DNA of 64,000 bases from Schmidtea polychroa (Eukaryota), in assembly GCA_044892525.1 (NCBI GenBank), contig CM097887.1:15128001-15192000 (forward strand). The letters run 5' to 3'. Both the position numbers and the translations under genes were made by a program. Position 1 is the first letter of the stretch, and every line of letters starts with the position of its first letter. The notes below the pieces were generated by a model. The model was not told the DNA's origin. It saw only the letters and a program-made list of their open reading frames with translations, and searched no databases. Shown here one piece after another: positions 63,298-64,000 of the stretch.

Positions 63298-64000
63298 GTG
63301 CCATCCTCTGGGGTCCCGGGCTCTGGAGGGGGTAATGAAATTCTCAGACATTCTCAAGGAGACTATCGACCCAGTCTTGATGGAACCTCGCTTCAATTCA
63401 CCTCAACCAATTGCGGAGCTTCTTGCATCGGTACCACCAAGCGGGGGAATGGCATAATATCCCAGTCAAATATTATTACCCGCACCTTATGTACGGTAAC
63501 CCAGATCTTTGGTCTTGCATGGAAAGATTTTTATGGTGGAAACCAATATCCATGCACTATGAAATATTCAATATTCAGGTTGTTGGTGAAACGTCTCCAC
63601 AGAACTTTTCTGGATTACAAAACCAGGTTGAGATGTTGGTTTATAAAGATACCGCCAACATATTTGGACCATGTGCAATGCCAGAAAACAAGGCAAGAGC
63701 CTTCAAAGACTATTTCTTGAATGAAGCAAGTTTACATAATGGTTATGATAAAAATAATCAATTATCTAAATTGAAACCTCAAATGTTACCTAAAGCTGGA
63801 TGGATATATATTTGTGAAACTTGTCCAGAGGTCGAAATAGTTAATTGTAATACTGGAGAAAGTATTGAATATGATTATACCAGTTCGAAAGTAAAATATC
63901 CTCGATATATCGTAGAAATGTGGGATCAACATACTGATCTTGCTGATGATAACTTAAAAGATACAGATGAACTATATTGGAATCGTTTTGATTATTTTAA
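63298..64000 (+). CDS. Parvovirus-like capsid protein (putative endogenous viral element), incomplete at the window end
   Basis: Stop-free frame 63381-63998 (206 codons) containing GEWHNIPVKYY...WWKPISMHYEIFNIQVVGET...NQVEMLVYKD, comparable to the parvoviral W..RP..L.FKLFNIQVKEVT...VQVFTD jelly-roll segment. A Gly-rich GVPGSGGG lies just upstream in another frame. Confidence 0.65.

Follow-up and report, generated by a model that had tools for sequence, protein, structure and literature searches.

Does the open reading frame (ORF) that runs off the end of this stretch of Schmidtea polychroa DNA belong to a viral capsid gene, and if so, how did that gene come to lie behind a host innexin gene? 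The stretch analyzed, called the window below, comprises 64,000 nucleotides of contig CM097887.1, and an original prediction made from its letters had proposed a parvovirus-like capsid gene at 63298-64000. We conclude, with a probability of roughly 0.7, that the locus is a broken capsid gene related to that of PEVE, a planarian virus-like element described as extrachromosomal, and that it was inserted into the host chromosome as captured viral DNA, on some chromosome copies only.

The frame comprises 206 codons without stops at 63381-63998 on the forward strand, is still open at the end of the 64-kb window, and carries the three motifs first noticed in it, WHNIP..YY, WKP.SMHYEIFNIQV and V.MLVYKD. 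In 2000 shuffles of the same base composition, the longest frame had a median of 62 codons and a maximum of 138, and none reached 185 codons or more. Re-reading and shuffles thus bore out the predicted stop-free frame from 63381, but its capsid-homologous part begins only at about 63435-63447. The GSGGG segment that had also been pointed out lies in a different frame (63295-63717). The window covers only about residues 1-235 of a protein of 430-450 residues.

A phmmer search of 1.84 billion representative proteins returned only two matches at E ≤ 0.001, P0001 (4.9e-9) and P0002 (1.1e-6). The full-length cluster mate P0003 was then aligned with the window by tblastn (24% identity over 197, E 1.4e-15), and its residues from about 48 to 235 correspond to the capsid core at 63444-64000, which lies on the forward strand in the second frame and runs off the window end. 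When P0003, P0001 and the window piece were combined into a profile, 8 of 1622 candidates matched it, including ORF1L of both PEVE types and the PEVE "putative capsid protein." The window piece also matched PEVE ORF1L directly, by blastp (23% over 174 residues, pairwise E 4e-14) and by tblastx (E 3e-6). With the window row excluded, a profile of four relatives recovered the capsid frame at E 1.4e-21, the next of 1292 window segments scoring E 0.51. By these alignments, the nearest kin of the gene is the PEVE family and not the parvoviruses proper; the earlier comparison with vertebrate parvoviruses had the capsid type right but missed this family as the closest relatives. Within the family the window protein is an outlier, 23-28% identical to its members and 17-20% to the two ORF1L rows in global alignment, whereas other members share 48-75% identity with ORF1L. 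The divergence originally predicted was real. We probably have here a new branch within a little-studied group of viruses, and not an element of an unfamiliar type.

The fold predicted from a relative is that of a single jelly-roll capsid of the parvovirus type, in keeping with the jelly-roll capsid first proposed. In a language-model search, the nearest entries were Cossaviricota capsid clusters (0.96), and a sequence search of the PDB gave a weak parvovirus VP2 match only (E 0.16). The Foldseek comparison pointed the same way, and the sequence likeness to parvovirus capsids is a weak one around the first helix and the following strand. The single jelly-roll topology with long loops is that of the capsids of bovine parvovirus (4qc8), PARV4 (8ep9), red-crowned crane parvovirus (9n5l) and Penaeus metallodensovirus (6wh3). 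As in the PEVE family, the N-terminus extends only about 45 residues ahead of the first conserved Trp, and a phospholipase extension was seen in no member.

We then considered the glycine-rich stretch and first strand encoded in the first frame at 63298-63441 on the forward strand, which profile comparison identifies as the true capsid N-terminus, one frameshift off the core, as had been predicted. Against the profile of four relatives the core scored 70.0 bits, and with this piece joined to it by an X at the break the score rose to 82.5 bits; the match of the joined read-through reached back to profile position 9. The gain was reached by none of 200 shuffles of the N-terminal piece, and the other two frames gave only 70.1-72.5 bits. 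Its global score was matched by 1 of 2000 shuffles with the N-terminus of P0003, by 26 of 2000 with P0001 and by 83 of 2000 with P0004. Searched alone, 63298-63441 gave no significant match.

Seven sequencing runs of one species, from three studies, contain part of 62000-64000, and 4 of the 15 listed were compared (X1, X4, X5 and X7). An X1 contig was identical to the window over 63399-63609 and an X4 contig over 63413-63609, each with no differences and no gaps. Because these window-identical contigs span the break, the frameshift is no assembly slip. Homology switches frame in the alignment at about 63440-63446 (forward strand), and related copies in X5 and X7 have an indel there; the frameshift thus exists, but lies at this place and not at 63400-63440 as had been suggested. 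Relative to innexin, the frameshifted stretch had a depth of 0.17-0.37 in X1 and X4. Two host samples, both from one study, therefore have the disabling change in common, at a depth like that of host DNA. In the alignment to relatives, the window copy has no start codon where they start. Frameshifted and lacking that start codon, it makes no working capsid, and in a functional sense the gene is not the "largely intact" one predicted.

The species has several diverged copies of the gene, the window copy among them. All four compared runs contained diverged capsid copies, about 85-90% alike; the original prediction had missed these many others. We analyzed 35 capsid differences, the best-supported ones from the best 40 of 287 rows, with the single row at the break excluded from the silent-site count. 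Of the 25 differences behind the break, 20 sit at third codon positions when read in the capsid frame (p 2.3e-6), and 19 were synonymous versus 18% at random. The nine ahead of it are too small a sample for a decision (5 are synonymous when read in the first frame, and 1 and 2 when read in the other two). The differences among copies are mostly silent, and the copies would therefore descend from viruses needing their capsid. The X7 copy differs from the window at 40 of about 284 bases and so is another copy; it had a depth of 38.8 versus 3-4.5 for innexin, in a run that shows innexin spliced and is taken as RNA by guess only, and it is probably transcribed.

Depths in X1 and X4 are consistent with a window copy on a minority of chromosomes, with the limit that contig depth, according to the tool, gives no copy number and is a poor measure of expression. 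The window copy had a depth of 183-211 in X1 versus 889-1060 for innexin, and of 12.1 in X4 versus 32.5. A minor host allele at 62683 was similar to it (201.5 in X1, 9.29 in X4). Record 12 of X4 (626 nucleotides, depth 20.5) follows the window over 63097-63286 and then departs, and its depth and that of the capsid copy add up to innexin depth. The window copy was not seen in X5 contigs. X5 and X6 contain about the host share of sequence words (0.42 and 0.40). Absence from contigs is weak evidence, for X5 as well, since X4 also lacks the window letter at 16 of the 35 listed capsid positions.

The flank is AT-rich animal DNA. The host innexin gene, which served as flank and depth yardstick, lies at 61218-62476 on the forward strand; it is intact, with two exons (Pfam Innexin E 5.2e-10 and 2.2e-40) and a GT..AG intron of 50 nucleotides at 61558-61607 that is skipped in X7. 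Behind it, at 62720-63286 on the same strand, lies what we take to be the decayed 3' remnant of an RLE-type retrotransposon without long terminal repeats, with a CCHC knuckle, a PD-type nuclease motif and a 3' flank; the class is presumed from these motifs. Its frame at 62877-63119 reads CRHC..ET.AHIFNHCP...PDL, and the Pfam zf-RVT match (E 0.02) was below the cut-off. Since the summed depth of 62876-63083 exceeded that of innexin about 7-10-fold in X1 and about 25-fold in X5, this part is a repeat. NeSL-related LIN families have been reported from planaria (PMC4640811). Two variants of the innexin region were also seen. At the innexin stop codon (62476), 11 bases are inserted in an X5 contig. 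Contigs of X1 and X4 (depth 289.5 and 23.5) leave the gene out altogether, joining 60968 to 62561 through 22 unrelated letters; with only 22 letters on the short side, these may reflect either a haplotype that lacks innexin or an artefact at the end of a repeat.

The likely left join is at about 63286/63287, within a TAA-rich leader at 63283-63297 on the forward strand. In PEVE the leader TAATAATAAA stands immediately before the capsid start; in the window it stands 2 bases ahead of the equivalent codon and occurs six times in the 64 kb, both strands counted. No viral DNA precedes the leader in the window. No hairpin or terminal repeat was found at the left join, which is a truncation point. 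Neither PEVE helicase matched the 64-kb window at E ≤ 1, and no Rep or superfamily 3 (SF3) helicase gene lies within it, upstream being host DNA and the window ending inside the capsid gene.

From these observations we infer integration at this place. A piece of viral DNA, cut just ahead of the capsid gene, would have been captured at a chromosome break inside the old retrotransposon remnant 3' of innexin, the likely target site, and would have been joined through a few bases (TAAT) common to target and leader. The silent differences among copies suggest that such capture from a circulating or persistent virus was repeated. Should the host, which its viral relatives suggest to be a planarian, be an asexual one, a single stem-cell capture event would suffice for inheritance through fission.

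Several results weigh against this reading. Among the best 32 of 14,467 records, none bridges 63286-63295, and the X4 bin 63188-63291 is wholly accounted for by the departing contig, so that the join is not shown in X4. Record 12 could represent a different retroelement copy and not the empty site, X1 is possibly the sample behind the window assembly, and X1 and X4 share a study. The window letter is absent at 15 of 35 listed positions in X5, besides those in X4, and both the choice of best-supported differences and the stated limits of contig depth bear on the counts above. As to the protein, Pfam has no family for the capsid frame, the Atlas recognition scores (2005 and 1796) were below the threshold of 2300, the fold model was of low confidence (mean predicted local distance difference test score, pLDDT, 35.7; Foldseek template-modeling score about 0.3), and the window piece modeled directly gave an unusable model (pLDDT 31.3).

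The missing bridge would also be expected if an extrachromosomal PEVE-like element, here as a defective variant, persisted in the animals and had been wrongly attached to the scaffold. PMC3198968 describes PEVE as an extrachromosomal element for which no integration was found, and the coexistence of many genotypes with mostly silent differences, one of them about tenfold deeper than innexin in X7, suits such an element. We nonetheless consider it rather unlikely: the contig is gap-free across the join in the assembly, and the common word there would be far too short for merging graph paths. The same frameshifted stretch occurs at single-haplotype-like depth in two samples, and every listed long variant is below innexin depth in three runs. 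Contamination, the alternative named originally, is likewise less likely than integration, but keeps some probability, since no listed record bridges 63286-63295.

The position of the leader directly behind the retrotransposon 3' part, in the same orientation, just ahead of the start codon and with no upstream viral DNA, would fit a capsid mRNA copied by the reverse transcriptase of the neighboring element, by template jump or 3' transduction, remnant and capsid arriving together. This we regard as improbable. In X4 the 5' part of the remnant is at full depth (34.5) and the capsid at 12.1, and a contig has the remnant end without the capsid, so that the remnant seems older; it also has stops and looks, by eye, internally deleted. 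More improbable still is that the host keeps the copy for a purpose, as a source of antiviral small RNA or a domesticated protein. A related copy is present in X7, where innexin is spliced, but its 40 differences mark it as a different one, and the window copy is frameshifted, seemingly on a minority of chromosomes, and unseen in X5. The suggestion that the gene had been retained found no support.

Comparison with the relatives also bears on PEVE itself. ORF1L of PEVE type 1 (L001 4629-5456) matches P0003 residues 51-289, and the "putative capsid" of its small segment (L002 242-739) matches residues 289-447, abutting the ORF1L part exactly. Homology in ORF1L stops at GTAAG just ahead of a 243-nucleotide inverted repeat, a length that we confirmed, and the second half begins after a CAG behind the repeat. 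By sequence, the two ORFs likely form a single parvovirus-type capsid gene, each of them an exon, spliced across the repeat; this may already be in the original PEVE paper. The JGI proteins P0004 and P0008 are divided in the same way, and P0001 and P0003 are undivided; the division, near residue 289, is past the window end at about residue 235. The deposited ORF1L switches frame near L001 4763 relative to P0004. L002 also encodes an NS1/E1-like SF3 helicase (Parvo_NS1 E 4.2e-12, PPV_E1_C E 1.3e-12), and L001 a Rep-like ORF of the CRESS (circular Rep-encoding single-stranded DNA) virus type with a weak match (Viral_Rep E 0.032).

The locus appears, from these comparisons, to work like a parvoviral endogenous element whose nearest kin is PEVE, with which it shares a homologous capsid and a similar leader; PEVE is reported as not integrated, whereas the window copy probably is. 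Parvoviridae genomes consist of linear single-stranded DNA, are 4-6 kb long with terminal hairpins, and include an NS1 gene (HUH nuclease plus SF3 helicase). According to passages of PMC3198968, PIVE is an integrated, multi-copy PEVE relative in Schmidtea mediterranea (Repbase 2008, cited there by Liu et al. 2011), whose PIVE_1p and PIVE_3p are listed beside the helicases of the PEVE small and large segments. PIVE, compared by description only, is thus alike in being integrated and multi-copy, but is described there by replication proteins and terminal repeats and not by a capsid, and on the left the window copy lacks such a repeat. Densovirus-like insertions of parasitic flatworms are, according to PMC6880638, PMC5013282 and PMC13055364, also multi-copy, partly frameshifted and often beside mobile DNA, but are defined mostly by NS1. 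Our literature search listed no paper that, judged by its listing or passages, deals with capsids of the PEVE family or with how these integrate; either Rebrikov 2002 or the PIVE entry of Repbase, both beyond that search, may contain a capsid gene or the splice. Few DNA viruses of planarians have been described, and a 2019 preprint (bioRxiv 10.1101/551184) names only the two Girardia elements.

Taken alone, the locus is a dead and probably inserted copy of a type already known, and it is of value as a marker. A capsid family that had fewer than ten members found in searches becomes twice as deep with it, and with many copies under purifying selection and one probably transcribed, a live DNA virus can be sought in the host. 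ORF1L, unassigned until now, likely encodes the first half of a capsid of the parvovirus type, making the question of PEVE particles directly testable, and such a capsid next to a CRESS-type Rep would bear on module swapping among single-stranded DNA virus groups. We offer as a tentative possibility, with odds well below even, that an undescribed active single-stranded DNA virus lineage persists and is transcribed, seeding segregating chromosomal copies and forming with PEVE a family-level group that combines the parvovirus-type capsid with CRESS-Rep and NS1-like replication genes, the PEVE capsid being spliced across the repeat and PEVE forming particles. The lineage would then be as far from PEVE as the group of PEVE is deep, and copies would segregate among animals or stem-cell clones.

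Elsewhere in the window, an intronless open frame of 437 codons with an acidic stretch (7823-9133, reverse strand) is unusual for the surrounding intron-rich, AT-rich DNA and is possibly of viral or mobile origin; Pfam, PHROGs and the PDB gave no significant match for it. Fragments at 3204-4067, with no Pfam match, are presumably decayed Hsp90-like sequence, as judged by eye. Remnants of DNA transposons lie on the reverse strand at 25619-26179 (BED zinc finger, E 7.3e-5) and at 37760-38317 (hAT-like by eye, no Pfam match). At 60342-60970 is a very high-copy short repeat resembling a miniature inverted-repeat transposable element, whose inverted arms flank an (AAT)n core; it has many relatives elsewhere in the window and a summed depth in the millions in X1.
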